This document shows, piece after piece, positions 11,661 to 34,590 of a stretch of 39,172 nucleotides of DNA; position 1 is the stretch's first letter; each line of letters begins with the position of its first letter. The stretch lies in assembly GCA_013375475.1 (NCBI GenBank), contig JABXKD010000033.1, forward strand, positions 1-39,172. The letters are read 5' to 3'. The stretch comes from Promethearchaeota archaeon (GTDB lineage: Archaea; Asgardarchaeota; Lokiarchaeia; Sigyniarchaeales; SOKP01). Both the position numbers and the translations under genes were made by a program. Below the pieces are notes generated by a model. It did not search any database and was not told the origin of the DNA. It was given only the letters and a program-made list of their open reading frames with translations.

Positions 11661-13019
11661 TTATTCTACACTCTTTAATCTCTCCATAAAAGGTTCTACT
11701 TTGGTTTTTACTTGTTCTATGTTTTCTCCTATTTTTTTGAAATTAATTACTATTGCAGGAATATCTAATTCAGATTTTAGCTTTTCCTTTAATTTATCGT
11801 ATGTTTTTGATATTGATGGGCAACCAAACACTTGGTTGAAGATTAAACCATCAATATCCATTTTTTCTGCAACCGTTAAAAACGAATTCGTCAAGTTTTC
11901 ATCGTCACATCCAATACCTTTCGCTGATGCATTCAAGAGAAATCGAGCGTATTCTTCAATTGGACTAGAGTGGGTTGATATGGGAATTTCTTCCAAAAAA
12001 CCTAGAACATCCCAATCTGCATAAATTATTCTTCCCCCTAATTTATAGATAATTTCGTGTACTTCAGGTTCCCATCCTTGATACATTGGAGCAAATAACA
12101 GCCTTGGCATTTTAGAAACATCCATGCCTATACCCTTTCTTATTCTCTCTCTCATTTCTTTAACTAATTGGCTTAAATTTTCTAAATATCGTTGTGAGTT
12201 AGAATTATAATCTTGAAATGTAATTGTTAAAAGAGCTAAAATTTCAGCAAATGTTGCGGGATTACACGGGTAGAAATCTGAGCTACTAATCTCGTAAAGA
12301 ATCGTTTTGTAAAATCTTTTTACTTGGTTTCCAATTCGAAATTGCTTCTGTAAGCTATTATCTGATACAAAATTACCCGTAATGTTTTCCAATTCGCTTA
12401 TTCCGTTCTTAATATTATCAACAATTTGTTCAAGAGCTTCAGTTTCTTTAAATGATTTTTTAGGAGGTACATCGATTAAAATTTGCTTAGGAACAGTTGT
12501 TTTTAACGACTCATAAAACTTATTCCATCTCCCACAGCGCATAGCGAAATTAAGGTGAGCGTCCACATTTTTTCCTTTTGATCTATGCATCCCATAAAGA
12601 GCGTTAATACCGTAGCATAATTCTGAAGGAACGCCATTACTAACACCTAATTCGTACATTTCATTATATTTTTTGTTTATCGAAGTGATAACGTCTTCAA
12701 GGATTTTATCAACAATCTTTAAGACATCGAATTGACGAGCAAAATCCAAAAATTTTGCGGTTAAATCCCAACCTAGAACCGAAGTAGCTGATGTTATTGG
12801 TGTTAAATATCTGCTAAAATCAAAAGATTCCATCCTTATTGGAAAAACTGGAACTGCTCCAACCGCAAAAACTAAATCGGGGAATCCTAAAGCAACAGAA
12901 ATTAATTTCTTCTTTTCTCGAAATTTTTTCTTTCGTAAGTAATCTCTCCCTGTTAAAAAATTTGACGCCATTTTTAGAACAGATGTGAAACTTAGGACAT
13001 CATCAGCGTATACACTCGT
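11661..13019 (-). CDS. 2-hydroxyacyl-CoA dehydratase/benzoyl-CoA reductase family Fe-S subunit, paralog 2; probable ACG start
   Basis: Colinear paralog of 15275..16630, sharing FYPCNPATF and RERIRKGIGMDVS. Cys in LCYG, MRCG and FGC. The ORF track starts at 12971, but homology extends 16 codons further to ACG at 13019. Confidence 0.82.
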   Translation of the reverse strand, partial: TSVYADDVLSFTSVLKMASNFLTGRDYLRKKKFREKKKLISVALGFPDLVFAVGAVPVFPIRMESFDFSRYLTPITSATSVLGWDLTAKFLDFARQFDVLKIVDKILEDVITSINKKYNEMYELGVSNGVPSELCYGINALYGMHRSKGKNVDAHLNFAMRCGRWNKFYESLKTTVPKQILIDVPPKKSFKETEALEQIVDNIKNGISELENITGNFVSDNSLQKQFRIGNQVKRFYKTILYEISSSDFYPCNPATFAEILALLTITFQDYNSNSQRYLENLSQLVKEMRERIRKGIGMDVSKMPRLLFAPMYQGWEPEVHEIIYKLGGRIIYADWDVLGFLEEIPISTHSSPIEEYARFLLNASAKGIGCDDENLTNSFLTVAEKMDIDGLIFNQVFGCPSISKTYDKLKEKLKSELDIPAIVINFKKIGENIEQVKTKVEPFMERLKSVE

Positions 13020-13023
13020 TTTA

Positions 13024-13033
13024 GGATCATCTC
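13024..13033 (-). promoter_or_regulatory. Shine-Dalgarno-like site in front of the ACG at 13019
   Basis: GAGATGATCC matches 9 of 10 positions of GAGGTGATCC, the complement of the typical archaeal 16S 3' end. It lies 4 nt before the ACG. Confidence 0.65.
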
Positions 13034-13141
13034 AAGATACAGTTTAAATTTAAGGTTTTTAGGACTACAATTACAAATTAGTAATTTAAAAGTAATAAAA
13101 TTTATGAGCTAAATTATAAGGTTTTAAAATACTATAATATC

Positions 13142-13606
13142 ATGGAGCCTAGTAAAATTGAATGGAAGAGTAGTTTAATTAAAAGTCTAATATATAGAAG
13201 TATTACGCTTGTACTGGGAACAACCACGGCATATATTTTAACTGGAAGTATCGCAATTGCTACAGGTACCGCACTTTTGACAGAATTAGTCCAAGGAATA
13301 TTCTATTTTGTTTATGAACTTGTGTGGAGTAATATTGCAAGAAGAAAACTCGAAAGTCGCATCTTTAACAGTCTCCAGATTAAAGAAATTGATTTAAAAA
13401 TAAATTATACTTCAATAGAAGAACTAGCTTATGTTCTTTCACAAATAGACACCTTCGTTCCAAAATTATATTTGAGTACCCTCAACATTTTGAATAGTAT
13501 ACTCAAAAATGAAGAATTAGAGGAAATCAGAGAAAAAATTCAAAAATATAAAGATCACTTCCAGAGAGTTCACTCACGTAGAAAATTATTTTTTGTTAAA
13601 GGGTGA
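13142..13606 (+). CDS. DUF2061-like small membrane domain with a C-terminal helical extension
   Basis: SLIKSLIYR...AYILTGSIAIA...FYFVYELVWSNI fits the DUF2061 pattern. Confidence 0.7.
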   Translation: MEPSKIEWKSSLIKSLIYRSITLVLGTTTAYILTGSIAIATGTALLTELVQGIFYFVYELVWSNIARRKLESRIFNSLQIKEIDLKINYTSIEELAYVLSQIDTFVPKLYLSTLNILNSILKNEELEEIREKIQKYKDHFQRVHSRRKLFFVKG

Positions 13607-13951
13607 ACATTTCTATTTTCGATGAAATTTACTAATTTCTAATTCTAAAACTATAATTCTAGTATATTTATGATTCTATAAAGTTTCTTAGAAAAAAATT
13701 AAATAAGATAACTCATTTATATTAATTAGAGATATTAAGTATTTGATATTCTCACACCTGCAAAACTTTTTAGGAATTTAGCTTAAAAAATAAAATTTAG
13801 GAAGGCAGTTACTGTATTAAATTAATTTTTGCCTACTTTCGATAGACAAAAAGCTGAATTTTTAATAATAAAATGACTTACTTCTTAAGGTAGAATTGGC
13901 AATCAAATACTCTAAAGTGATATTTTAGCAAAAAAACAAAAAAATAAGAGA

Positions 13952-15250
13952 GTGATAATAATAAGAACAAAAAATATTGAGAATTTAATAACTATGAACG
14001 AAATTTCTTCAGCTATCCAAAAAACTTTTAACTCTCAATTCAGGATTTCTAAAAAATCTATTATTTCTGAGGATTACCTATTAATAATAGGTCTCAGTGA
14101 AAAAGGGTTTATTTCAGTGGTTCAATCTTCCATAGATAAGAATTTTGAGAGGACTCGCATATCCATTTTGGCGTTTAAAACTAAATCATTAGCTAAAGAA
14201 TTAAAAATACAACATGAATCGCATAATTGGATAAACCTTATTGAAGAAAAATTGATTCAATCATTGAAAACTGAGGTTAAAAATGAATTTCACAATCCAT
14301 TTACAGAACTTTCTAAATTTCAATTAGAGAAAGCTCAAGAAAAAAGGAAAATATTTAAGCTCGAAACAAGAATTCTAAATGTTTTAATAAAGCATTTATA
14401 TCATGTTATTGACTTTTCAGACGGAATTATGAAATTTCCTTTTTCTGTGAACCATATTGATGGAAAGCGGGAAGAATGGGATGAAATTTATTTTCCATAT
14501 GTTGAATTAATTGAAAAAAATATAATTAAAACCAATCTAGAGAATACAAAAGTTTATCGCAACTATAATTTTGCATTAAAGGGTGATAGTTTTCAAAGAG
14601 TAATAGATCTAGTAATGGTTACAACTAAAGAATCTTCCCTAGACCCCAAAAGTCAAGCTACTGAAGAAATAAATCCCTATGATTATGAGATTACTTTTAT
14701 TTATTGTAATAGAACGTCTAAACCATTTAAATATATGAGTTTATTAAAATTTATAAATGAAATTAAGTCGTTTTCAGAGAAATTCAAGAATGATAAAAAA
14801 AATGAGTGCCATAATATCAAGTCACAATTAATTTTAATCTCCCAATTTGGACATGACCTAGAAATTAGAGATTATCTGAGAAGTCATTTGATTAGAGAAG
14901 TAGATTACACTATTCCTTTAATGTTTGTACCTCCTTTTAAAGATAAAGTGTGGCATAATTTTATTGAATATGAGGATTTAAAAACACAAAAGCGAGATGA
15001 TTTGGAGAATATTATCAGAATAGGTAATAAGAGACAAGCATCATATTCTTTTAGGAATAATATGGTAAAAACCGCAAAAAGTGATTATGCTCAGATAATT
15101 GCACGAGATAAATTGGATAAAATCGATAATGAGTTTTTAAATATGTGGTATCAAATATTAAATGTTTCTGAATCAGCGGAAATTCTAAAAATCAATAAAG
15201 ATCAAGAGAAATCTGATAAAGATATTAAAGAGAAGATATCAATATATTAA
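13952..15250 (+). CDS. Hypothetical protein with a possible degenerate Mrr-like PD-(D/E)xK domain
   Basis: Long ORF containing VYRNYNFALKGDSFQRVIDLV...FIYCN...LILISQFGH. The start is uncertain (GTG 13952 or ATG 13994). Confidence 0.55.
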   Translation: MIIIRTKNIENLITMNEISSAIQKTFNSQFRISKKSIISEDYLLIIGLSEKGFISVVQSSIDKNFERTRISILAFKTKSLAKELKIQHESHNWINLIEEKLIQSLKTEVKNEFHNPFTELSKFQLEKAQEKRKIFKLETRILNVLIKHLYHVIDFSDGIMKFPFSVNHIDGKREEWDEIYFPYVELIEKNIIKTNLENTKVYRNYNFALKGDSFQRVIDLVMVTTKESSLDPKSQATEEINPYDYEITFIYCNRTSKPFKYMSLLKFINEIKSFSEKFKNDKKNECHNIKSQLILISQFGHDLEIRDYLRSHLIREVDYTIPLMFVPPFKDKVWHNFIEYEDLKTQKRDDLENIIRIGNKRQASYSFRNNMVKTAKSDYAQIIARDKLDKIDNEFLNMWYQILNVSESAEILKINKDQEKSDKDIKEKISIY

Positions 15251-15274
15251 GGTATTTTCTTTAATTTTAGAAAA

Positions 15275-16630
15275 TTATTTGAACATTTCCATAAAGGCAC
15301 CTAATCTGGTTTTCACTTGATCGATTGATTCTCCTATTTTATTAAATGTAATTGCTGTAGTCGGTATTTCAAGCTCATTTCTTATTTTTTCTCTTAGCAT
15401 AGAATAACAATTTGAAATGGAGTGACATCCAAATAATTGAAAAAATATCATTCCATCAGCATTTAAATCCCTTGCCATTCTCAAATAAGAGTCAGTTAAC
15501 TTATCATTATCGCAACCAATTCCTGTTTCTGTAGCTCTCATAAGAAATCGGGCGTACTCCTCAGAAGGATTTGAATTAGGTGATGTGGGAATTTCTTCTA
15601 ATAATTGTAACAGTTCCCAATCGGCATACAGCGCTCTTCCACCCAATTCATAAATTATCTCATGACTTTTTGGTTCCCATCCTCCAAACATCGGGGTCAC
15701 AAATATTCGAGGCATATTAGATACGTCCATTCCAATTCCTTTTCTAATTCTTTCTCTCATTTCTTTTTCGAGAGACACAATATTATCTCTATATCTGGTT
15801 GCGTTTGAGTTATAATCTTGAAATGTAATGCTTAAGAGTGCCATAATTTCGCTAAATGTCGCAGGATTGCACGGATAAAAATCAGAAGCGCTAATATCAT
15901 AAATTATGTTTTTGTACGCTCTTTTTACTTGGTTACCGATTTTGAAATGATCTCTTATCTGATTATCTGTAATTGTTTTACCTGTTAATTCCTCAAAGTC
16001 CTTAATCGCGTGTGAAATGTTATCCGTTAGTAATTCTATGGCATTTCCAATGTTTCTAGGAGGTATATCTATCCAAATTTGCTTGGGACCTTCGTTAATT
16101 GCTTGCAAAGATTCAAGATATTTATTGTAGGCGCTACAACGGATCGTAACGTTAAGGCAAGCATCTACATTGCTTCCTTTGGAGACATGCATACCCACTA
16201 AGCTTTTCAACCCGTAGCAAAAATCAGTTGAGATTCCATATTCAATTCCAATATCATACATTTCGTTGTACTTTTTATTTATTACATCAATTACATCTTC
16301 AATAATATCATCTACGATTTTGCTTACTTCGTTAATTCCAAGATTTCTTATAAATCCTAGAAAATTAGATACCGTGTTCCAACCAAAAATACTTGAAGCT
16401 GAGCCTAAATAGGTAAGATATTGACTTATTTCAAATTCATGCATTCTAATTGGAAAAACAGGAATAGTATCAGCCGCAAAAGCTAAATCTGAAAAAGGTA
16501 AAGTTACAGCTACTAATTTCTCTTTTTCTCTGAATTTCTTACGCTTTAAATAATTTCTACTAGCAAGTAAGTTATAAGCTATCTTTAAAACTGAGGAGAA
16601 TGTTATGATTTCATCTGCAATTAAACTCAT
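15275..16630 (-). CDS. 2-hydroxyacyl-CoA dehydratase/benzoyl-CoA reductase family Fe-S subunit, paralog 1
   Basis: Cys in FCYG, IRCS and LFGCH. C-terminal QVKTRLGAFMEM. ATGA overlap with the upstream subunit. Confidence 0.85.
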   Translation of the reverse strand: MSLIADEIITFSSVLKIAYNLLASRNYLKRKKFREKEKLVAVTLPFSDLAFAADTIPVFPIRMHEFEISQYLTYLGSASSIFGWNTVSNFLGFIRNLGINEVSKIVDDIIEDVIDVINKKYNEMYDIGIEYGISTDFCYGLKSLVGMHVSKGSNVDACLNVTIRCSAYNKYLESLQAINEGPKQIWIDIPPRNIGNAIELLTDNISHAIKDFEELTGKTITDNQIRDHFKIGNQVKRAYKNIIYDISASDFYPCNPATFSEIMALLSITFQDYNSNATRYRDNIVSLEKEMRERIRKGIGMDVSNMPRIFVTPMFGGWEPKSHEIIYELGGRALYADWELLQLLEEIPTSPNSNPSEEYARFLMRATETGIGCDNDKLTDSYLRMARDLNADGMIFFQLFGCHSISNCYSMLREKIRNELEIPTTAITFNKIGESIDQVKTRLGAFMEMFK

Positions 16631-17766
16631 TTCATCATCTCTAGATATGCTTCAATTCTTGTTGATAATTGACCTCTATTTGCTCTCGAGTAATCTCGTT
16701 CTAAATTTAGAACTTGAATTCCTTTTTCTTGAAGTCTATCCTTTAAAAAAGAGGACATTAACGAGATGTGGTCACAAAACTTAATGATGTGGTTGATTAC
16801 ACCTAGTTTTTTACCTTTTGTTTTTGTATAGTCTTGGTAATAATTCTCGATTTGAGATATTTTATGTTGAAGAAAATTAGGTACTGAATGGTCCCCATAT
16901 ATATTATTCTTAAACTTCAAAACTAGTAATTCTAAAGGATCTTTTTCAGTATCTATACTATTATCATCTATAATTTGGGAATAATAATGATTCCCAATCC
17001 AAGTATCGAAAAAAATTATGTTTCCTCCTCCTTCCTCGATTAAATCGACCATATTATCGTTAATAAAGATCGAGCAGCCAGTAAGTAAAACGGCTTTAGA
17101 TGTTTCTGATATAGGGGATGGATTTTCTTTAACATAATGAATAAATTTTTCTAAATCTGGTTGAAATTCAGGACCATAAAGCATGGCTCTATGCAAAACT
17201 TTTAATTTTTCCGATCCTAGAATCTCTAACTCATTAACTTTTAGAAGGACTTTTTTAAATTGATTATACTTGTTTATACTCTCAAATAATCTCTCGTTAG
17301 TTATTTCAGTTCCAATAATTTCTTCAAGTTTGCTCTTTAGGTCTAATAATTCTAATTTAAAATATTTCAGACTGCTTTCATTTTTCGTATAGGGAACATA
17401 AAAGTTCAATCGAGAGATGTTGAAATATCTGGAAATAATCTCTGAAACACAAACGTCTGAAACACAGTGATTAGAAACTATAAAATAATCTACTAATTCC
17501 AAGAATTTAAAGAGATTAGGTTTTGTTGAAAATAATCCTATACAAGACTGAGCGAAAGCACAGGTGGATGGTGGTAAAAAATCATGGCTCGCATCCATCA
17601 ATTCGTCATTCCCACCAAACATCAACCTTAAAGGAAAGAAACCAGCAGCATCAAGTAACTCTTCGGGGATATTATCGTGAGCTAAGTAAGCAACTATTTT
17701 AACTCCTTCTGACTTTTTTTCCTTAAGAAATAGAGTAATATCAGATAATAAACTTAGATCATCCAT
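16627..17766 (-). CDS. 2-hydroxyacyl-CoA dehydratase family subunit (HgdB/FldC-like)
   Basis: IPEELLDAAGFFPLR, STCAF, NHCV, KFCD, LERDY...GQLSTRIEAYLEM. The ATG at 17766 is preferred over the TTG at 17772. Confidence 0.88.
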   Translation of the reverse strand: MDDLSLLSDITLFLKEKKSEGVKIVAYLAHDNIPEELLDAAGFFPLRLMFGGNDELMDASHDFLPPSTCAFAQSCIGLFSTKPNLFKFLELVDYFIVSNHCVSDVCVSEIISRYFNISRLNFYVPYTKNESSLKYFKLELLDLKSKLEEIIGTEITNERLFESINKYNQFKKVLLKVNELEILGSEKLKVLHRAMLYGPEFQPDLEKFIHYVKENPSPISETSKAVLLTGCSIFINDNMVDLIEEGGGNIIFFDTWIGNHYYSQIIDDNSIDTEKDPLELLVLKFKNNIYGDHSVPNFLQHKISQIENYYQDYTKTKGKKLGVINHIIKFCDHISLMSSFLKDRLQEKGIQVLNLERDYSRANRGQLSTRIEAYLEMMK

Positions 17767-17788
17767 AATCAAAAAATTGACACTTATT

Positions 17789-18568
17789 TCAATTAGAACT
17801 GTTTTCTTGAGCGATTAAAGCGGCGCCAATAGCTCCAGTTAACTGAGGAAATTCGGGTGTTTCAACCTCATAACCAAGTTCTTCTTCTAAGTATTTTTTC
17901 ACTGCGGGATTTTTAGCGACTCCACCACAAAATACTAATTTGGGGCCAACTCCAATGCGTTTTGCCATCCCCGCAACCCTTCTTGCGATTGATCTGTGAA
18001 TTCCGCTCGCTATTTCTTCTTTGGATGCGCCTCTTGCAAACAAGCTAATGACTTCGCTTTCCGCAAAAACAGTACATGTGGAACTGATTGAAGCAGATTT
18101 ATTGGATTTTAAAGCTAGATTCCCAAATTGATCAATAGGAACCTCTAAAGCGTGAGCCATGACCTCTAAGAATCTGCCTGTCCCTGCTGCGCACTTATCG
18201 TTCATTTGAAAATCGACTACATTTCCTGTTTTCTTAGATATAACGATCGCTTTGCTGTCTTGACCTCCAATATCAATAACTGAGTGAACATCTGGAAAGA
18301 AATATTGCGTACCTTTTGCGTGGGCAGTAATCTCAGTTACACGGTCATCTGCTATGTCTATTGTGTTCCGGCCGTAACCAGTACTCATCAAAAACACATC
18401 AGACTTGTTTAAATTATTCTTTTTTAGTAAATCGTCAAATAAGTTATGCCCAATTCTTTTAAAATCATATGTGGATCTCTCTGTCCTGTGATCAATTAAT
18501 TTTCCGTCGCTAATAAGAGCAATCTTTGTTGCTAATGAGCCTATATCAATTCCTATAAAAGTTTTCAA
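17789..18568 (-). CDS. hgdC: 2-hydroxyacyl-CoA dehydratase activator (ASKHA ATPase, HgdC/BadF-BadG family)
   Basis: GIDIGSLATK, STGYGR, TEITAH, DIGGQDSK, MNDKCAAGTGRFLE, ISSTCTVFAESE, GGVAKN. Likely start is TTG at 18568 (ORF track gives 18613). Confidence 0.93.
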   Translation of the reverse strand: MKTFIGIDIGSLATKIALISDGKLIDHRTERSTYDFKRIGHNLFDDLLKKNNLNKSDVFLMSTGYGRNTIDIADDRVTEITAHAKGTQYFFPDVHSVIDIGGQDSKAIVISKKTGNVVDFQMNDKCAAGTGRFLEVMAHALEVPIDQFGNLALKSNKSASISSTCTVFAESEVISLFARGASKEEIASGIHRSIARRVAGMAKRIGVGPKLVFCGGVAKNPAVKKYLEEELGYEVETPEFPQLTGAIGAALIAQENSSN

Positions 18569-18647
18569 CTTAATCCAACTAAATATTTTATTTTTTGTAG
18601 AGAAATTATCCAAAAAATTTTAATTTTTCGAAATATCAAATTTTATC

Positions 18648-19367
18648 TTAGTGTAACAACAGAATAGATATTACCATTGTTATCCCAAAAGCAGCTAACA
18701 TTTGAAGAATGTTCTTAAATATTGACTCCTGCGAAATAAAACCTATTAAACTACCGAGTAGAACGATACACCCAAAGATTATTAAAAAAGAATGGATAAA
18801 AGTGGATAGATTCGCTTGTTCTGTTAAAAAGAAAGGGATAAGAGGAATTGTTCCCCCTATAAAAGGAGCACCGCCATTTACAAGTGAGACTATTATAGAT
18901 GCGAATCTTTCTGCTTTCTCCTGTATTGTTTTTACTTTTTTCTTCTTAATTCTTGGGTTTTTTATTCCCCTTTTTTTTTTTTCATTTTTACGATGTAGAT
19001 TTACTGTTATCATTGCTTTCTCGATTTCTTCATTTTCTGATTTAATATCCGCCTCATTTTTTTGTTCCTCCTCTACGAGCACCATTGCTTTGTCTAACTC
19101 TAATTTCAATTTTCTTAGCTCTGCTTTTTCTGAAATATATGACCCACTCAAACCAGACACAAACATAGAAATAGAAGTAGCAAAACCCGTTAATAGAACC
19201 AGATAACTATCCATAGTATGTTGACTTCCTCTTAATGCTGAAATAAAAAATCCAAGAATAATTCCTAAAACAGTCAACATACCATCGTAAAAATTATTTA
19301 TAAAATAACGACGGGCAATTGATAAAAAATCGGTAATATCGGCGTAGGTTCTAACCTTATCAATCAT
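18648..19367 (-). CDS. VIT1/CCC1-family (TIGR00267-like) membrane transporter, copy A
   Basis: RRYFINNFYDG, GSYISEKAE, IPLIPF. About five hydrophobic segments. Confidence 0.8.
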   Translation of the reverse strand: MIDKVRTYADITDFLSIARRYFINNFYDGMLTVLGIILGFFISALRGSQHTMDSYLVLLTGFATSISMFVSGLSGSYISEKAELRKLKLELDKAMVLVEEEQKNEADIKSENEEIEKAMITVNLHRKNEKKKRGIKNPRIKKKKVKTIQEKAERFASIIVSLVNGGAPFIGGTIPLIPFFLTEQANLSTFIHSFLIIFGCIVLLGSLIGFISQESIFKNILQMLAAFGITMVISILLLH

Positions 19368-19541
19368 TTTAGACTATCTTTACTGGGATCAAGATACTTT
19401 TTAATAATCTTTTTTCCTCTAAATCGGTTTGTTTTAAAAATTAATTTGAGATTCCAATTACTCCTTATTCCTATTTGGTTATTATCATTTATATATATAA
19501 TGATTGAATTATACTAAAATAAATTTAAATTAAAAATTAAA

Positions 19542-20291
19542 TTAAGGAGAGATCGCTAATTCTAGCAGTAGGGAAACGAGTAAAGTAGTGATACCCGCTG
19601 TAACAAGGTGTAAAGTATATTTTAAATGACCCCCTTCAGAAATATTACCAAGGAAGATTCCCAAATAAACTAAAATACCGACCAATACTGCATAAGATAC
19701 GATAAAATGAAACACCGATAATACTGTACCAAAGAAAAAGGGTAATAATGGGAGAACTGATCCTAAAACAGGGGCACCTCCGTCTACTAAGGATGCAACT
19801 ATAGTAGCAAATCTTTCTGATTGCTCGATTAATGATTTTTTTTCAGATTTCCTATTTTTCTTCTTGCTTATTAGAAACTTTTTTTTGTATTGATCAGTAG
19901 AATCTACTTTGATGGGAGTGATCATTGCTTTTTGAATCTCTCTTCTTTCTTTCTTTTTATCCTGATCCTCAAGATTTTTTTCAACAATTACCATTTCTTT
20001 CTTTAAATCACTTATTTTTTTTTTCCGTTCGGCATCTTCTGAGAGGAAAGCCCCCCAAAGTCCACTAATGCCGATGGCTAAAGCCGTAGAGAGTCCTGTT
20101 ATTACAATAATAGTTGAGCTTAAATATTGACCCGCGTGTGAAAGGAATATTATGAAGTTTCCACTTACTATACCCGCACAAGTCAAAGCTCCGTCAAAAG
20201 CGTTGTTAAAAAATTTCCGTCGAGAAATTATTCCTAAATCAGACATTTCAGAATATTTACGCCATTTTTCCACTTTAGATTTTAATCCCAT
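19542..20291 (-). CDS. VIT1/CCC1-family (TIGR00267-like) membrane transporter, copy B
   Basis: RRKFFNNAFDG, WGAFLSEDAE, LPLLPF. Paralog of copy A. ATG 20291 is preferred because GTG 20306 lies in an SD-like AGGGTG. Confidence 0.8.
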   Translation of the reverse strand: MGLKSKVEKWRKYSEMSDLGIISRRKFFNNAFDGALTCAGIVSGNFIIFLSHAGQYLSSTIIVITGLSTALAIGISGLWGAFLSEDAERKKKISDLKKEMVIVEKNLEDQDKKKERREIQKAMITPIKVDSTDQYKKKFLISKKKNRKSEKKSLIEQSERFATIVASLVDGGAPVLGSVLPLLPFFFGTVLSVFHFIVSYAVLVGILVYLGIFLGNISEGGHLKYTLHLVTAGITTLLVSLLLELAISP

Positions 20292-20487
20292 TTTAGGTAA
20301 ATACACCCTTATTAGCGAATTCTAATAATACTAGATTTAAATAGAAATGATTCAAAATTCGATATAATTCTTATAAATAACAGAAACTATTAATCTTTTT
20401 TACATAAATTTACTTAAAAACTGATGATTTTTATTTATTTAATCATATTATATTCATAGATTATAATATAATTTATTGATTATTAAA

Positions 20488-21132
20488 ATGTCTTCGAACA
20501 GAAAGGTTAAAGAAGAAATAATTACGCTTCTCTTAGAGCATTCTAGAATAATATATGATGTCACAAGTGATTGTGCAGTTTACTATACAAATTGGTCTGA
20601 AGATTTTGAATCTAATAAAAAAGATTTAGAAAAGAAAAAGGCGAAGATGCAATTATCTGAAGAGGAAGCTGACGAGTTAAAAATTCAATTAATACAGAAC
20701 TTTTCAGAAGCGGAAGCCTTTAATCTTGGAGCTTATGTAGATTTAGTTCTGAAAATGGATAACATCATTAATTACCCTCTTGAATTTGTCGATATGCTTG
20801 ATAAGATTAAACTTGAAGGCAAGTATGCAAAAGAAATTAAAAAGAAATATCATAAGCTATTAAACCAGGTAATGGAAATGGTTGACATTTTAAAGACAGC
20901 CATAAAGAACTTAAGAGATAAACCAGAATTGGTTTTTGAGAATACTACAACTATACATGAGCACGAATCAGAAATTGATAGGACTTATAGGCAATTTCTT
21001 GAGTTTATATATTCTAATGTTGAAGATATCAGAACGCTATTGAGGGTTAGAGATAGCATAGTTCTTTTAGAACAAATGGCAGACCGAGTTCACGATATTG
21101 CTGATTTAATGAGAGTGTTATTATACCAATAA
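20488..21132 (+). CDS. DUF47/PhoU-like phosphate transport regulator family protein
   Basis: Duplicated helical bundle with EEEADELK, HEHESEIDR and LEQMADRVHDIAD. The ATG at 20488 is preferred over the TTG at 20476. Confidence 0.82.
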   Translation: MSSNRKVKEEIITLLLEHSRIIYDVTSDCAVYYTNWSEDFESNKKDLEKKKAKMQLSEEEADELKIQLIQNFSEAEAFNLGAYVDLVLKMDNIINYPLEFVDMLDKIKLEGKYAKEIKKKYHKLLNQVMEMVDILKTAIKNLRDKPELVFENTTTIHEHESEIDRTYRQFLEFIYSNVEDIRTLLRVRDSIVLLEQMADRVHDIADLMRVLLYQ

Positions 21133-21220
21133 ATACGAATTCGCTATAAATTAGATTCTTTCTTACATTTGATTTTTCTCATTGTTTTTTAGACTAAATT
21201 CAAACTTATGAGATATTTTA

Positions 21221-21232
21221 GAAAAATTTATA
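21221..21232 (+). promoter_or_regulatory. Putative BRE-TATA promoter of the ATPase operon
   Basis: GAAAAA followed by TTTATA, about 65 nt upstream of atpK. The AT-rich background limits specificity. Confidence 0.4.
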
Positions 21233-21295
21233 CGCATATATTTATTACTCTATTCTAAAATATTATTGATAATTAGAGTAAAAGTGGTTAATATT

Positions 21296-21658
21296 ATGAA
21301 CGGGAAAAAAAAATTTTATTTATTACTCGGCGCATTCCAATTAGTCTTGGTAGCGATCGTTTTTCTAAGCGTAGACGGCGTTATAACATTGGTAGCGGCA
21401 CAAACAGAGAGTTTTGATTATTATAATTCTCCAACTGCTGCCGCGTTAGCAATTTCGGCAGCTATAGCCCTTGCTGCATCGGTATTAGGGAGTGCGTTGG
21501 CTATAAGGACGGTAGGTACAGCAGCAATCTCTTCCTTATCCGAGAGAGAAGAAAGTTTTTTTAAGGCATTTTTAATCGTAGCATTATGCGAAGCACTGGC
21601 CGTGTATGGTTTAATTGTAGCAATCTTACTCTGGACAAAAATCCCTACGCCGATTTAA
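21296..21658 (+). CDS. atpK: A/V-type ATPase proteolipid subunit K (c), single hairpin with an N-terminal hydrophobic leader
   Basis: VGTAAISSLSE...FLIVALCEALAVYGLIVAIL with the ion-binding Glu. The ATG at 21296 is preferred over the TTG at 21266. Confidence 0.92.
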   Translation: MNGKKKFYLLLGAFQLVLVAIVFLSVDGVITLVAAQTESFDYYNSPTAAALAISAAIALAASVLGSALAIRTVGTAAISSLSEREESFFKAFLIVALCEALAVYGLIVAILLWTKIPTPI

Positions 21659-21686
21659 GGTTATTTATTATTTAAATTCTATAGTT

Positions 21687-21693
21687 AGGTGAT
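21687..21693 (+). promoter_or_regulatory. Shine-Dalgarno site in front of the ACG at 21700
   Basis: AGGTGAT, then TTTTAC, then ACG in the atpC frame. Confidence 0.7.
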
Positions 21694-21699
21694 TTTTAC

Positions 21700-22761
21700 A
21701 CGAGTATAATTATTCCATCTTATGCATACACATTCATCAAAATCGATTTTTTAAAGAATTTAATTATTGGCGATGCTACATTAAAAAATTTTGAAACAAT
21801 CAACGATATCCAAATCTTTTTAGAATCTTTAAAACCATATTATCCAAATATGGAAATTAAAAATTATACAATAGAGGAAATAGAAGGAGCTCTAATTAAT
21901 AATTATATTCTGCTAGTTGGAAAAATAATGCACTTTTCTCCATTGAATATGAGGAATTTTTTGAAACAGTATCTAATGAAATTTGAAATTCAAAATCTCA
22001 AGATGATAATCATTAGCTTAATTATAGGGCGAACTAAAGAAGAAACGAGAAAAGATGTTAATTTTTTGTCTGAAGAATATTTAGACAACTCAGATTTAAT
22101 TGAAGAATTGCTTAAAGCGACTAATTTAGATGAAATACAAATCTTGTTGAAAAGAACTCCATATAATATAGCTATTAGAGAAGGATTCCTCTACTTAAAA
22201 AAAAACAAAGAGATTTTTGTCTTAGAAGCCTTTCTGGATCAATTGTATTATAAACAGCTTCAATTACAAACCCAAAATTTGGATAAAAAAGAGAAAACAA
22301 TGATTTCATTATTTGTGAAATACAAAACAGAAATATACAACTTAAATTTAATATATAGAGGAATTAAAAATAACATTGAGAGATCATTATTAAAGCAATT
22401 TTTAGTTCATAATTATTTATTCTTAGATGAAGGTAAACTCGAGTTTTTGTTAAATCTAACTAATCTTAATGATTTTGTATCAACTATAGAACTTTATATT
22501 AGAGAAGCTGAAGAAATTAAGGCACTTTTCATAATATTAAAAATTAGTCAAAAGCACTTAATAGGATCAATTGAGGATTTTTATATTTCTTATTATTTCA
22601 AAAAATTTAAAATTAAAATTGATGATATTGAATATTTCACGATTTCCAAAATATTGGAAGTTATAATTAAAAAAGAAAAAGAAATTAGATTTGAAATTTT
22701 ACCACAAGTTATAAAAATCATTCATAAAAAGTTTAAAGTATTGAAAATGAAGCAGAATTAA
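21700..22761 (+). CDS. atpC: A/V-type ATPase subunit C (d); probable ACG start, 353 aa
   Basis: Operon position; KFEIQNLK, LEAFLDQLYY, EIYNLNLIYRG. The frame is open 50 codons upstream of the ORF-track ATG (21850) and encodes the subunit-C-like YAYTFIKIDFLKNLI. Confidence 0.82.
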   Translation, partial: TSIIIPSYAYTFIKIDFLKNLIIGDATLKNFETINDIQIFLESLKPYYPNMEIKNYTIEEIEGALINNYILLVGKIMHFSPLNMRNFLKQYLMKFEIQNLKMIIISLIIGRTKEETRKDVNFLSEEYLDNSDLIEELLKATNLDEIQILLKRTPYNIAIREGFLYLKKNKEIFVLEAFLDQLYYKQLQLQTQNLDKKEKTMISLFVKYKTEIYNLNLIYRGIKNNIERSLLKQFLVHNYLFLDEGKLEFLLNLTNLNDFVSTIELYIREAEEIKALFIILKISQKHLIGSIEDFYISYYFKKFKIKIDDIEYFTISKILEVIIKKEKEIRFEILPQVIKIIHKKFKVLKMKQN

Positions 22762-22807
22762 TAATAAGAATTAATAAGATTAAACATAAAATGAAGGCGC
22801 TAAAATA

Positions 22808-23119
22808 ATGAAAATTTTTGAATGGGTTGAAGAGATAGAACGCATTTATGAAGAATTAGTTGAGACCGCTAAAAAAGAAAGTTTAGAAGATATACAAAAA
22901 GAAAGAAGTGCTCAAGAGAACTTACTAGAAGATACAACTCGTAAAAACCAAGAAATTATAAATAATGCATTAAAGACAGTTTCAAAAGAGGTTAGTGAAG
23001 AATCGGCCAAATTTGAAGAATTATTAATGAATTTACGTAATAAAATAGAAAAATATTATTATGACAATAAAGAAGATTTAATAAATTCGATATTTAAGGA
23101 ATTGGGTTTTGATTTTTAA
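22808..23119 (+). CDS. atpH: A/V-type ATPase peripheral stalk subunit H (G)
   Basis: 103-aa charged helical protein within the operon. Called from size, composition and position. Confidence 0.7.
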   Translation: MKIFEWVEEIERIYEELVETAKKESLEDIQKERSAQENLLEDTTRKNQEIINNALKTVSKEVSEESAKFEELLMNLRNKIEKYYYDNKEDLINSIFKELGFDF

Positions 23120-23436
23120 TGGTAGAAGAAAAGATACATGTTATTGGTTACGAAGAAATCGTTTCATTATTTGGGCTTTTAGGTATTGAGGGTACTGTTG
23201 TCAATCATGAGGATGATTTCTTGAGAATGTTTGAAGATATAATAAAAAAACCATCGATTGTTATGGTTATTGTAAATATGGATTTATCCGATGATCTTTT
23301 TGAATACTTATTAGATTTTAAAACAAATAATAAAATTCCATTTATCTATCTATTACCTGATATCTTTCAACAGGATGTGACCAAACATGATAAAATTTTT
23401 GATTTGATATACGATTTAATACAAGAACTAATATAA
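23119..23436 (+). CDS. atpF: A/V-type ATPase subunit F
   Basis: KIHVIGYEEIVSLFGLLGI resembles the subunit F N-terminus. 105 aa, with a TAATG overlap. Confidence 0.88.
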   Translation: MVEEKIHVIGYEEIVSLFGLLGIEGTVVNHEDDFLRMFEDIIKKPSIVMVIVNMDLSDDLFEYLLDFKTNNKIPFIYLLPDIFQQDVTKHDKIFDLIYDLIQELI

Positions 23437-23452
23437 AATGAGATGATAAGTT

Positions 23453-24175
23453 ATTAGCGAAGGAGGAGAAATTAAAAAGCGTTTTGGAGAATTAGGTCTG
23501 TATTTAATTAAGCAAGCTGATAATGACATAAAAAGCATTAATCAGCAAATTCTTTTTCAAATAGCAGAGATTAAAAGAAAAAATAAGGAGAGAATATCAG
23601 AAAGCTCAATAAAAATGAGGAAGAATTTTAATGAGATATACAACAATTTATTAAACAACTTCCTTTCTTCGTCTCTTCTGAAAATTAAAGAGGAAGTATT
23701 AAAAACTAAAAATAAATTAATGTTAGATCTCATTTCAGCGTTGACAGATTTAATAGAAGATAAAATTAAAAATAACTACGCAAGCTATATAGCCTTTCTA
23801 CTTACAATCCTTCAAAGTATTAAACCTATTATTGATAAACCGCCAGAAATTAGAATTACATTTAATTCAAAAGATTTTAGTTATTTTAGTGGAAATATGA
23901 ATAAGATAGAAAAAATTTTTACTAATAAGGTAAAGTTAATTAAATCAGAAAAGGAGTTTACGGGGGGATTTGTATGTGTTTTAACTGCGGGAAATATTTC
24001 TTACAATTATACTATTGAGAATCAATTAAAAAGAAATATCACAATTATAGAAATTACTTTTTCAAAGATTTTTTCGGATTTTGAAGCAGATGTAAAAAAT
24101 CTTGAAAATAAGTATATTCAATTTATTCAAAATCAAAAATTAGCTATAAATGATTATTTAAAGGATTATGAATGA
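23453..24175 (+). CDS. atpE: A/V-type ATPase subunit E; probable ATT start
   Basis: FTGGFVC...ISYNYTIE matches the subunit E C-terminal domain. The frame is open 54 codons upstream of the ORF-track ATG (23615). Confidence 0.8.
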   Translation: MSEGGEIKKRFGELGLYLIKQADNDIKSINQQILFQIAEIKRKNKERISESSIKMRKNFNEIYNNLLNNFLSSSLLKIKEEVLKTKNKLMLDLISALTDLIEDKIKNNYASYIAFLLTILQSIKPIIDKPPEIRITFNSKDFSYFSGNMNKIEKIFTNKVKLIKSEKEFTGGFVCVLTAGNISYNYTIENQLKRNITIIEITFSKIFSDFEADVKNLENKYIQFIQNQKLAINDYLKDYE

Positions 24176-26003
24176 AACTCAAGAAAAAGTGCTGTCTGGA
24201 TATGTTTCATCAATCAATGGCTCACTAATAGAGATAAAAGGATTAGAAAATCAAGTACGACTTAACGATCTCATTAGGGTGAAAAATATATTAGGTGAAG
24301 TCATCCAAATTTATTCTGATCATGTAATAGCCCAATGTTTTGAGAATACATTTAATTTAAAATTAAATGAAAAAGTTCTCAGTTTGCAGGAACCTTTATC
24401 TATGGAACTTGGTCCGGGATTATTGGGAAAGATTTTTGATGGAATTCAAAGACCTCTAGAAGCAACTCTTTTAAAATCTAAAACGGGTGGGTTTTTAGAG
24501 AGAGGGTTAGATCTTCCATCCTTATCACGAAAGAAAAAATGGTTGTTTAAACCATCAAAAAAAGTAAATGATTATGTAAGTACTGGTTATATAATCGGCG
24601 TTGTTCAAGAAACTCCATTAATTAAGCATAAAATTTTGGTTCCAGTAGGAATTTCCGGAAAACTAACATTTATCGCAGAAGAAGGAGAGTATACAATAAC
24701 TGATGAAATATATCGCTTGAAGAGAGGTTCGAAAGAAAATACTTTCAATATGATTCAAAAATGGCCGATTACCAAACATCGACCTTATAGAAGGCGGAGT
24801 TACCCGAAAGAACCATTAATTACGGGAATCAGAACAATAGATTTATTATTTCCGATAGTAAAAGGTGGTACAGTTGCAGTTCCTGGAGGTTTTGGAACAG
24901 GGAAGACTGTAATTCAGCAATCTTTGGCAAAATGGTGCAATGCAGATGTTATTATTTTTATAGGATGTGGTGAACGCGGAAATGAAATCGCAGATGTTTT
25001 AAAGCAATTTTCTGAGATTATTGATCCCAAAAGTGGACGCCCATTAATGGAACGAATCGTCCTAATAGCAAACACGTCAAATATGCCTGTATCTGCTCGT
25101 GAAGCTAGTATTTTTTCAGGAGTGACAATTGGAGAGTATTATAGAGATATGGGATATGATGTTGCAGTATTAGCTGACAGTACTTCAAGATGGGCTGAAT
25201 CATTAAGAGAAATCTCTGGATTATTAGAAGAAATGCCTGCAGAAGAAGGTTACCCTGCTTATTTACCATCAAAGATTTCTAGCTTTTATGAACGAGCTGG
25301 GGTTGTTAATATCTATAGTGAAGATGATTCAAATACAGAAAATCTTGGCTCTTTAACAGTAATTGGGTCAGTTTCACCCCCCTCTGGCGATTTCAGCGAA
25401 CCTGTGACTTCCACTACAAAACGCTTTGTTCAAGCTTTTTGGGCATTAGACGCAAATTTAGCCTATTCCAAACACTACCCCGCAATAAATTGGCTAAAAT
25501 CTTACTCCAAATATCCTGAATTTATATCCGATTGGTGGTATGAAAGAGATGTTTATTGGCCTGAGATCGATATAGACTGGTATGAGAGTAGAAGACAATT
25601 CAATAACATACTATCTCAAGAAAATGAGTTAAAAAATGTTACCCAATTAGTTGGAGAAGAAAACTTACCCGAAAGCCAACAGTTTGTCCTTTTTATCTCA
25701 AAATTAGCCAGAAATGGTTTTTTAATCCAAAATGCGTTTGATCCTATTGATAGTTTTACGGATATTAAAAAATTAATGGAGTTTACAAAAATTATTCTCT
25801 TATTATATCATGAGGGCCAACAGCTTATAACTCAAGGGTACCTAATCGATGATATAAAAGATTTAAAGGTGATAGAGGACATTCTGAGAATTGGGTCTTC
25901 AGTTCCTAATAATGAATTTGAGAAAATAGAAGAATTAAAGAAACAACTAATTTATGAAATAGAATCTCTAAAATTAATGCGCGGAGTTTTAAAGAAAAAA
26001 TGA
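24168..26003 (+). CDS. atpA: A/V-type ATPase catalytic subunit A (canonical copy)
   Basis: Walker [51 protein letters not shown]. No intein. Confidence 0.97.
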
Positions 26004-27391
26004 GTGTAATTTATGGAAAAATTAAACAAATTGTTGGACCATTATTGTTTTTAGATAACAAACATGACGTACAATACGGTGAAATCGTTAAAATCCATTC
26101 TGATGATGGTATAGAACGCACTGGACAAGTTATAAAGATGGATGAAAATACGATAACAATTGAAGTTTTTGAAGATACATCAGGTCTCTCTTCAGAAAAT
26201 TCTTTAATTACTTTTACTGAAGATTCATTTAAAATCAAAATATCTAGTGATATGTTCGGAAGAGTCTTCAATTCACTGGGAAAACCGATAGATATTAACA
26301 CTAAACAGGAATTAGATTCTGAACTATTAACCGAAATAGATAGAGATATAAATGGGTTACCAATTAATCCATACGCCCGAGAATACCCCTCTGAAGTTAT
26401 CCAGACAGGAATTTCAGTTATAGATGGGCTTTTTACATTAATAAGAGGTCAAAAACTTCCTATTTTTAGTGGTCAAGGGATGCCTCATAATCTATTAGCT
26501 GCTCAAATTGTAACTCAAGCAAAAGTGTTAACAAAAGAACCTTTTTTGATTATTTTTTGTGGAATAGGGATTATTCAAGATGAAGCTATTTTTTTCATGA
26601 AAAGATTTCAAGAAAGCGGAAATATCCAGAATATCATATCTTTTATTAACTTTGCTGATGATCCAATTATGGAAAGACTAATAGTTCCAAGAGTAGCTCT
26701 TACAACTGCTGAATATTTCGCTTTTGAGAAAGATATGCATGTTCTCGTTATTTTAATTGATATGACAAATTATGCGGAAGCTTTAAGAGAACTAAGCTCT
26801 GCTAAAGAGGAGATTCCGAGTAGAAAAGGCTACCCGGGATACTTATACACCGATTTTGCATCTATCTACGAAAGAACTGGCAGAATTAAAGGTAAAAAAG
26901 GGACAATTACTCAAATACCTATTCTTACAATGCCAAACGATGATATAACTCATCCTATCCCCGATACTACGGGTTATATTACCGAAGGACAATTAGTCCT
27001 GAACAGAAACTTAGATAAGACAGGAATATATCCTCCCTTTGAAGTTTTAGCTTCTATTTCGCGTCTTATGAAAGACTCTATAGGTAAAGACACGACTAGG
27101 GAAGATCACGCTGATGTTAGCTCGCAATTACTCTCTTCATATTCTGCTTCTCTTGAGATTAGAGATCTCATCTCGATTGTAGGAGAAGATGGTTTAAATT
27201 ATAATCAGAAAGCGTTATTAAAATTTGGAAATGAATTCGAGCGGAGTTTTTTAAATCAAGGATACAAAGAAGAAAGAGATATCAACACAACTTTAAATAT
27301 TGCTTGGAAAGCGTTATCTTACATTCCGAGAAATCAATTATTTAGAATACATCATGAATTTATTGATAAATATTACGTTGGAGGGGTGTAA
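26000..27391 (+). CDS. atpB: A/V-type ATPase subunit B
   Basis: [41 protein letters not shown], arginine-finger segment SISRLMK. Confidence 0.97.
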
Positions 27392-27397
27392 GTACCG

Positions 27398-28030
27398 ATT
27401 AGTTTTAGAGAATTAAAGCCTACAAAGACCAATTTAATGTCTCTAAATAAAAGGTTAAATTTTGCCGTAAAAGGTGAAAGCTTTTTAAAATTCAAATTAG
27501 AGCAAATTATGATAGAAGTTAAAGAAAATTGGAAGAATTATGTTAGGAATCGTGAAATATTTATAGAATTATACAAAGAAACTATGATTAAACTTAATAA
27601 TACATACGAAGAAATGGGAAAAAGAAATTTCAAATTAATTAGTAATCTAAGTAAACTCCAATTTAAGCCAAAAATAGACATTAAATATATTAAGAAAATT
27701 GGAACATTAGTTCCAATAATTGAATATGAATTGATAAGGGAGGAACTACTTCCCGCTTATTCTTTTGAAAATACTAGTTATTATCTAGATGACTTAATAA
27801 TTGTTTTAGTAGAATTTTTTGAAAAACTTATAATCTTGGCTAAGTATGAAGATATAATGCTAAATTTGGCTAAAAATTATAAAAAGATCAATCGTAGAAT
27901 ACTTGGCTTAAAGAATGTAATAATTCCCGAGTTAACAGAGGATGTAAAAAAAATAAAAGGTATTTTAGAAGAAAATGAAAGAGAAAATTATGTTCGATTA
28001 AAAAATACAAAAGACTTGATTAATAGATAA
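27398..28030 (+). CDS. atpD: A/V-type ATPase subunit D; probable ATT start, 210 aa
   Basis: KPTKTNLMSLNKRL..A.KG and KINRRILGLKNVIIP...LEENERE. The KPT motif lies upstream of the ORF-track ATG (27437). Confidence 0.9.
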   Translation: MSFRELKPTKTNLMSLNKRLNFAVKGESFLKFKLEQIMIEVKENWKNYVRNREIFIELYKETMIKLNNTYEEMGKRNFKLISNLSKLQFKPKIDIKYIKKIGTLVPIIEYELIREELLPAYSFENTSYYLDDLIIVLVEFFEKLIILAKYEDIMLNLAKNYKKINRRILGLKNVIIPELTEDVKKIKGILEENERENYVRLKNTKDLINR

Positions 28031-28052
28031 ATTAATTACAAAGTGATTATGA

Positions 28053-33665: not shown

Positions 33666-33702
33666 TTTCTCAATAAATGATATTTATGAGAAGGTGATAA
33701 GT

Positions 33703-34590
33703 TTGGTTATAAGAAAAGCATCGCACGCGGGAAGTTGGTATCCTAGTAAAAAAGAAGCATTAATAAAAGATTTAAAGTCTTCTTTTTGTAATAACACATT
33801 CGGGCCGGGTAAATTGCCTGAATCGCTAAATATGGAAACAAGAACAATATTCGGAGGAGTATCTCCTCACGCAGGATATGCATTCTCCGGAAAATGTGCT
33901 GCCTTCACTTATTTAAATCTGTTTAAAGAGAAAATCCCAGATACAATCATAATATTAGGAACTGATCATGTGGGCTATGGAGGAGTCGCTCTTTTAGGAG
34001 ATGGGGCATGGGAAACGCCATTAGGGAACTTGGAGATTGATACTGAATTATCTCAGAAGATTATTGAGTCCAGCGATATAATTGTTGATGACCCTTCCGC
34101 TTTTACAGGATTTATGGAACGCGAACATAATATCGAGATTCAATTACCTTTCATTAAATTTTGCGCGGAAGATAAAGATGTAAAAATAGTTACAATGAAA
34201 TTTGGAGGTAAGAAGGATTATAGTGCGTTTGAAGTATTAGCAAACGATATAGCAACATCAATTAAAGCTCTTAATAAAGACGTTGTCATAGTAGCTTCAT
34301 CAGATATGTCCCATAAAAATGTGTCTAGTACAGAGCAGTTAGATCAGTTTAAAAAAATTGATCATGATGTCATAGATGCCTTTGTAGAATTCGATCCAAA
34401 AAAGACTCTATCGGCTGCTTCGCGAACTACTGTATGTGGAGCGCAAACGATAACGACCTTAATGTTGATTTGCAAGAATTTAGATTGCACCAATGGCAAA
34501 TCATTAAAGTACTATACAAGTACTGATGTCAGAGGAGAATATGGATATTGTGTTGGATATTTTTCCGGGATACTGATGAAATTAACTTAA
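33703..34590 (+). CDS. MEMO1 family protein (AmmeMemoRadiSam protein B)
   Basis: RKASHAGSWYP, SPHAGYAFSG, WETPLG, EHNIEIQLPF, VASSDMSH, TVCG, VGY. TTG 33703 lies behind SD AGGTGAT; the ORF-track GTG at 33694 is inside that SD. Confidence 0.92.
   Translation: MVIRKASHAGSWYPSKKEALIKDLKSSFCNNTFGPGKLPESLNMETRTIFGGVSPHAGYAFSGKCAAFTYLNLFKEKIPDTIIILGTDHVGYGGVALLGDGAWETPLGNLEIDTELSQKIIESSDIIVDDPSAFTGFMEREHNIEIQLPFIKFCAEDKDVKIVTMKFGGKKDYSAFEVLANDIATSIKALNKDVVIVASSDMSHKNVSSTEQLDQFKKIDHDVIDAFVEFDPKKTLSAASRTTVCGAQTITTLMLICKNLDCTNGKSLKYYTSTDVRGEYGYCVGYFSGILMKLT

Follow-up and report, generated by a model that had tools for sequence, protein, structure and literature searches.

The stretch of DNA analysed here, called the window below, is one entire contig (C215; JABXKD010000033.1, 39,172 nucleotides (nt)) of a metagenome-assembled genome (MAG) of a Promethearchaeota archaeon (an Asgard archaeon of the Promethearchaeia; GCA_013375475.1). 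This MAG, labelled G000, comprises 3.92 Mb in 288 contigs at 32.5% G+C, with an estimated contamination of 6.4%. The window holds an A-type ATPase operon, with the gene order K, C, a 103-aa open reading frame (ORF), F, an E-like gene, A, B, D and I, as well as clustered genes of the 2-hydroxyacyl-CoA-dehydratase type. The usual view is that archaea start translation at AUG, GUG or UUG. Here, four genes of the window (one of the dehydratase type, atpC, atpE and atpD) and some tens of others in the genome probably start instead at near-cognate codons, ACG and AUU at the four and AUA, AUC and CUG elsewhere, a reading drawn from sequence comparison.

All four have an in-frame stop shortly upstream, a motif resembling a Shine-Dalgarno (SD) sequence and an in-frame near-cognate codon, just as a first-pass annotation of this DNA had described. 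The motifs were given a gapless register score against the SD consensus, spacing being the number of nt between the end of the consensus and the codon. On the minus strand, the HgdD-like gene of the 2-hydroxyacyl-CoA dehydratase D-component family (11661..13019, Pfam PF06050) is read from ACG at 13019. Its leader runs TGA, GAT GAT CCT AAA and then ACG-AGT, with the SD-like GAGATGATCC (13024..13033, score 19) 4 nt before the ACG and overlapping the in-frame TGA at 13034-13032. The first ATG, at 12971, comes 16 codons past the ACG, and the N-terminus TSVYADDVLSFTSVLK pairs with MSLIADEIITFSSVLK of the paralog at 15275-16630. On the plus strand, atpC, encoding A-type ATPase subunit C of the AC39/d family (21700..22761), is read from an ACG that is preceded by AGGTGAT (21687..21693, score 19, spacing 4) and six further bases, and followed by AGT; the first ATG is at 21850, 50 codons on, and Pfam PF01992 covers residues 28-330.

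The E-like gene (23453..24175, plus strand) is read from ATT. Its leader consists of GAGATGAT (23440..23447, score 13, spacing 3), the in-frame TAA at 23447-23449, GTT and then ATT-AGC at 23453, and its first ATG lies 54 codons further on, at 23615. A Pfam scan gave no family for the protein; its residues 40-206, counted from the ATT, match positions 33-195 of the NCBIfam profile NF003049 weakly, below the cut-off, so that the putative name of subunit E comes from the gene order together with this match. The gene for subunit D, atpD (27398..28030, plus strand, Pfam PF01813), also reads from ATT. Here the SD-like GGAGGGGTG (27380..27388, score 15, spacing 5) sits at the end of atpB and is followed by the atpB stop TAA (27389-27391), GTA CCG and ATT-AGT at 27398; the first ATG, at 27437, is 13 codons past the ATT. 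Profile position 1 of PF01813 corresponds to AtpD residue 12, two residues ahead of the first Met (residue 14), and the matches to PF01992, PF01813 and PF06050 all exceed their cut-offs. In this part of the window (27386-27400) atpB and atpD share one frame with a single TAA between them (GTG TAA GTA CCG ATT). Readthrough of the atpB stop into atpD was considered and rejected: six related loci (L129-L132, L134 and L135) have the atpB stop out of frame, yet keep the ATT.

Both 16S rRNA genes of the MAG carry the 3' tail ...GGATCACCTCC, for which the expected SD is GGAGGTGATCC, and the motifs at the four sites are therefore partial matches to GGAGGTGATCC. The four odd sites have SD scores of 13-19 at spacings of 3-5 nt, while three ordinary starts of the window, at 9334, 28053 and 33703 (TTG), score 13-17 at 1-3 nt, which bears out the earlier remark that the odd starts are spaced about 2 nt more widely. 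Throughout the genome, the SD of confident ATG starts lies 1-6 nt away, most often at 3, a range within which the four sites fall. The first-pass annotation had also drawn attention to the AGY Ser codon that follows each of the odd codons. It is indeed there at all four sites, but genome-wide it follows only 4/11 of the ACG and 3/38 of the ATT candidates, and relatives also show ATT-TCx, so that it was rejected as a rule of the start signal. After SD-led ATG, Ser is the second codon in 52/285 cases, and AGT, with 27/285, is among the three commonest second codons; AGT in second place marks starts in general, not odd starts in particular.

The stretches between the odd codons and the first ATG are, to judge from their pattern of change, coding in all four genes, since pairwise differences fall mainly on third codon positions and the family profiles match. 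Counted by codon positions 1/2/3, the differences in these extensions are 1893/1361/3457 for atpC, 1956/1325/3113 for atpE, 253/27/750 for the dehydratase gene and 202/71/628 for atpD. As had been foreseen, standard gene callers truncate such proteins: AtpC relatives in the databases begin at downstream Met residues (301, 306, 313 and 321 aa, against 349-359 aa at full length), and other models start from an in-frame GTG or, in a 359-aa NCBI model, from the first ATT after the stop.

Orthologs show which column the odd codon occupies. Each gene was searched for in about 30 related genomes, and every locus was read from its upstream in-frame stop. At 17 atpC loci of the window's genus (below, the genus) the codon is ACG in 13, ATG in 3 and TTG in 1, and at 26 further loci from seven genera of the family it is ACG in 22, ATG in 3 and TTG in 1. 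The GGTGAT and its T-rich spacer are kept in relatives; the close relatives G006, with ACG, and G001, with ATG, share a leader of GGTGAT plus TTTTTY. In G033 and G059 the ACG is the first codon after an in-frame TAA, and therefore nothing upstream of it is usable as an atpC start. For atpE the 17 genus loci have ATT in 16 and ATG in one (G010), and the outgroups have ATG in 6/6, with ATG-TCA standing in that column in other families. Among 15 full-length orthologs of the dehydratase gene 9 have ACG and 6 have ATG, and the paralog has ATG in 6/6; the downstream Met is conserved in the ATG-started orthologs as well, where it is an internal residue.

The picture for atpD is more varied. The 17 genus loci show ATT in 10, ATG in 3, ATA in 1, TTA in 1 and, in 2, an ATT that follows the stop immediately, two codons before the usual place; these last two also lack the downstream ATG, which is absent from atpD of G002 and G004. 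In other families the column is canonical in 11/11 (ATG in 9, GTG or TTG in the rest) and is followed by Ser-Phe. A set of 32 loci from named records gave ATT in 19, ATA in 1, ATG in 3, a shifted ATT in 4 and none of these in 1, with 4 not read. Alignment of orthologs thus places the odd codons in the column where relatives carry ATG, and these codons are found again in dozens of independent related assemblies.

The signal is not confined to these genes. The count in G000 drew on 3226 stop-to-stop ORFs that do not overlap and are 100 codons long or longer; an in-frame codon that lay 8 or more codons before the first ATG, GTG or TTG was taken as SD-preceded when an SD of score at least 13 stood ahead of it at a spacing of 1-6. 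Codons that are not near-cognate give a background of 2.0% SD-preceded. Above this stand ACG, the most enriched of all, with 11/82 (p=8e-7), and ATT with 38/875 (p=1e-5); the signal is weaker for CTG (5/59), ATC (11/255) and ATA (19/660), and the summed excess comes to about 45 sites. Leaving out the contig of the window does not remove the enrichment that the first-pass annotation would lead one to expect (ACG 9/80, p=3e-5; ATT 36/873, p=6e-5). When 36 further candidates were translated from the candidate codon and scanned against Pfam, a domain began within the extension in 13, several times at profile position 1-2. These are radical SAM, SMC_N, PIN_6, Thr_synth_N, Pop5/Rpp14, PheRS-beta B1, ribosomal L11_N, DeoC aldolase, RadA HHH_5, a Ras-like GTPase, Metallophos_2, Thiolase_N and GatB_N, and the domains lying upstream of the first canonical start include P-loops. 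The relaxed, SD-guided choice of start codon proposed for this lineage thus appears to be supported by comparative and statistical evidence alike.

The gene for the initiation factor aIF1 (SUI1), which lies outside the window (G000:C234:654-983, locus L161), itself has no ATG, GTG or TTG between an in-frame TGA and the first Cys of its zinc knuckle. After the TGA it reads AAA AAG AGT ATT AAA GAC GAC GAT ATT and then the zinc-knuckle Cys, and upstream of the first ATT there is an invariant aaaGGTTGTGA. ATT-AAA-GAC is present in 12/12 genus copies examined. Elsewhere the start column reads ATT in genus g10 (13/13), ATC in g14 (2/2), ATA in g12 (4/4, with an alternative in-frame GTG four codons upstream) and ATA in family f7 (2/2); family f5, in which ATA was seen, has no canonical codon in 2/2, and family f6 has TTG or ATG in 3. 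In other classes of the phylum a canonical start stands at the expected place in 24/30, none does in 5/30 and 1/30 is ambiguous. The aligned N-termini of other genera run ATG-CCC-AAG, TTG-CCG-AAA-GAT and ATA-CCA-AAA-GAC; counted from the ATT, residue 5 aligns to residue 3 of the solved aIF1 4mo0, and residue 4 corresponds to position 2 of the profile NF002096. Changes in the aIF1 protein, one of the places to which the first-pass annotation had pointed, were rejected as the cause, the genus sequences showing no obvious loss in the alignment with 4mo0. In Sulfolobus, aIF1 is reported to block AUU but not AUG complexes (PMC4705826).

Two relatives have a second copy of aIF1 (G005:C60:41226-41441, L147, and G007:C23:10957-11169, L150), on the same contig as the dehydratase ortholog and some 7-8 kb from it, in which GAGGTGA is followed by ATT-AAA-GAx. 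The leader of the G000 gene (L161, about 640-665) also contains a five-codon mini-ORF in the +1 frame, GTG...TAT TAA, whose TAA overlaps the ATT. Since the conserved ATT-AAA and GGTTGTGA automatically create it, this mini-ORF may be a by-product of the motifs, or it may be a coupling device.

The initiator tRNA, to which attention had likewise been drawn, is canonical in its anticodon arm. Its gene is on G000:C12 (minus strand, at about 8614 in strand coordinates) and has A1, a GGG/CCC anticodon stem, the anticodon CAU and an intron after position 37, and the anticodon arm is identical in G012, G016 and the outgroup G026. This gene was missed in G000 by ARAGORN with and without introns, by an Rfam tRNA scan and by a regular expression for the anticodon arm, and was located through the 5' half known from relatives. 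Introns are present in many tRNA genes of the MAG, and ARAGORN and simple motif scans fail on them. No dedicated variant initiator tRNA was seen, in a search that was not exhaustive for a second, variant initiator.

We consider the best explanation to be the following. A strong SD would pair with the 16S tail, putting the near-cognate codon in the P site, where the ordinary initiator tRNA (CAU) would be accepted despite one mismatch and would presumably supply Met as the first residue. The degree of permissiveness would be set by the fidelity factor aIF1, with its own gene starting at AUU (AUA, AUC or UUG in sister lineages), and aIF1 would by this means restrain its own production in the same way as IF3, whose gene, infC, starts at AUU. 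Selection would keep the weak starts so as to lower the output of particular genes, for instance those for the low-copy ATPase stalk subunits C, D and E beside the ATG-started A and B. The start of aIF1 could offer a reason for such a permissive set-point, in parallel with infC and eIF1. The more ambitious form of the proposal we advance tentatively, and with more doubt than belief: that across the Promethearchaeia aIF1 throttles itself from a near-cognate AUU, AUA or AUC or a weak UUG and so holds stringency at a permissive level, that ACG, AUU and related codons thereby become selectable, conserved starts that tune the ATPase stalk subunits, RadA, L11 and PheRS-beta, and that ACG is a bona fide archaeal start over family-level timescales.

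Several observations weigh against near-cognate initiation as set out here, those from which its rivals draw strength among them. An SD of score at least 13 precedes only about 17% (115/659) of the confident ATG starts and is thus a minority signal, and among the Pfam tests of further candidates 22/36 were uninformative and 1/36 marginal. One atpD locus of the named records, L120 (JAEOTS010000116.1), reads CCA AAA GCG TCT TTT CGT at the start, with neither a canonical nor a near-cognate codon there and no nearby downstream ATG, and is unexplained. In-frame GTG or TTG codons that could act as starts in place of the odd codon, within or beside the SD-like motif, occur 1-4 codons upstream in atpC of G009, G017, G018, G043, G031, G041, G061 and G046, in atpE of G006, G001 and G003, and in atpD of G018, G017 and G007. 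The feedback through aIF1 is pure inference, and g5 has ATA on aIF1 but ATG on atpC, atpD and atpE. As to scope, 2 Mb of the closed genome of the outgroup G026 gave 3/33 for ACG and 11/411 for ATT, individually weak, and these rates do not differ significantly from those of G000 (Fisher p=0.75 and 0.16, respectively), so that the idea of a genus-specific trait was dropped. Two of the eight G026 candidates, a PemK-like gene and TFE-alpha, both with ATT, have Pfam support. In G022, of another family, atpC (L078) reads GAGGTGATGA GAG ATT AGA where near relatives carry ATG CGC or ATG TGC, which points to an ATT start outside the window's family. Because a different family shows apparent ATT starts (G022, G026), the trait as read from these genomes is not genus-specific, and our reading has become wider than the one first proposed, taking in an order or class, more codons and more genes; with the proposed part of aIF1 it is also more definite as to mechanism.

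An alternative that we hold to be unlikely is termination-reinitiation, in which ribosomes leaving the upstream cistron restart with a relaxed need for a particular codon, so that odd codons are tolerated only in coupled genes. The layout of the operon would suit it: the gap from atpB to atpD is 6 nt, that from atpF to atpE 16 nt and that from atpK to atpC 41 nt, gaps of at most 41 nt are found in 8/18 of the supported genes, and L120 keeps the coupled arrangement without a near-cognate codon. Yet the dehydratase, aIF1, RadA, Metallophos and thiolase genes (5/18) have a divergent upstream ORF or none, and 5/18 more have gaps of 76-997 nt, leaving 10/18 in all without a close upstream stop; moreover, coupling alone does not require that a specific codon be conserved over family-level divergence. 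Reinitiation may nevertheless help atpD, atpE and atpC. RNA editing is a further rival. In plant organelles ACG start codons are restored to AUG by C-to-U editing, and were the same to happen here initiation would be canonical at the level of RNA. The likeness is real in that ACG, the most enriched codon, occupies the start column, where it and ATG replace one another between close relatives, and RNA does not contradict it, the contigs of two metatranscriptome runs over 12000-28100 covering none of the four start sites. The first-pass annotation had aptly observed that such editing could account for ACG and not for ATT: the ATT, ATA, ATC and CTG sites, beyond the reach of C-to-U repair, have the same support from SD, column and domain as the ACG sites, and the same goes for aIF1. 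Literature searches gave no paper joining archaea with an ACG start codon, and we know of no report of C-to-U editing of mRNA in archaea. On these grounds we think editing quite improbable.

Gene callers yield models of another kind, in which translation would start from the ATG downstream or from an in-frame GTG or TTG close by; the similarity further upstream would then be a relic or a conserved, non-coding leader. All four genes of the window do have a downstream ATG, and some relatives have the GTG or TTG codons noted above. Against this stand the dominance of third-position variation in the extensions, the Pfam domains, P-loops included, upstream of the first canonical start, and the dehydratase Met that is also conserved in ATG-started orthologs, as an internal residue; atpD of G002 and G004 does not possess the ATG in question, atpC of G033 and G059 has its ACG right after a stop, and aIF1 offers no canonical codon at all before the zinc knuckle. 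This we judge very improbable. Errors of sequencing, assembly or binning, or a set of pseudogenes, would be conceivable in a MAG as fragmented as this one (288 contigs) and with its level of estimated contamination. The same codons appear, however, in dozens of independent assemblies, and the genes, which are intact, show coding constraint. From another sample there is a contig that spans 25552-27882, and among its listed differences from the window (225 more are unlisted) none falls at 27398-27400. We give this explanation next to no weight.

Near-cognate initiation, if it is what these genes use, has partial counterparts in other systems. To go by published outlines of the eukaryotic process, the factor concerned is homologous (eIF1 and aIF1), ACG and AUU are near-cognate codons there too, and the logic of stringency governed by the level of the factor is alike. 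Reportedly, eIF1 is autoregulated through the poor context of its own start. The eukaryotic system differs in that scanning and Kozak context take the place of the SD pairing that would position the codon here, and in that eIF1 keeps AUG whereas the codon of aIF1 is non-AUG. The AUU or AUA start of bacterial infC, which encodes IF3 and is autoregulated, is alike in that the very factor that rejects non-canonical starts begins at a near-cognate codon, as aIF1 seems to do with ATT, ATA or ATC after an SD-like motif. On the other hand, IF3 is no relative of aIF1, which has the SUI1 fold, feedback is only proposed for aIF1, and many other genes here appear to use such codons.

A near-cognate start of infC has been described in PMC2830850, a study of Deinococcus by N-terminal proteomics that assigned starts at ATC for dnaA, CTG for rpsL and ATA for infC. 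The resemblance extends to the conserved core nature of the genes starting at ATC, CTG or ATA, to the annotation errors that result and to the conservation of ortholog N-termini. The Deinococcus cases are bacterial, amount to only about four genes in that account of them, with no ACG among these, and are backed by peptides, whereas the starts proposed here come from sequence comparison. Ribosome profiling of Haloferax volcanii placed about 30% of putative alternative initiation sites at near-cognate codons (PMC7261190). These sites differ from ours in that, in the authors' treatment of them, they were put aside to limit false positives and are not the main starts of conserved genes. Our literature searches, whose coverage did not extend to the codon list for Haloferax (Supplementary Figure S8 of PMC7261190) that may bear on novelty, turned up nothing published on ACG or AUU as start codons of Asgard archaea, nor on aIF1 starting at a near-cognate codon; what came closest were the Deinococcus and Haloferax studies and reviews of aIF1 fidelity.

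If core genes have indeed kept ACG and AUU starts over long periods, near-cognate initiation would be extended to the archaea, and an aIF1 without a canonical start would similarly extend to them the self-control of a fidelity factor, in both cases in the lineage nearest to the eukaryotes. There is also a practical side. Proteomes of Asgard MAGs are called with ATG, GTG and TTG only and would therefore contain core proteins that are truncated or have inconsistent N-termini, as is illustrated by the relatives of atpC in the databases, which span 301-359 aa. Research on the origin of eukaryotes would feel the effect through the domain inventories, predicted structures and phylogenies that it employs. 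The matter is open to test, as at least one relative with apparent ATT starts has a closed genome (G026).

Two smaller points concern the MAG and the window at large. The MAG contains two different archaeal 16S genes (G000:C222:102936-104338 and G000:C263:2265-3749, with 1238 and 1043 bits, respectively, against the Rfam archaeal SSU rRNA model), one of which may come from another organism. Within the window, an ORF has been called from the GTG at 33694, for which the TTG at 33703 is the likelier start (33694-33705), the GTG falling within the SD GAAGGTGAT.

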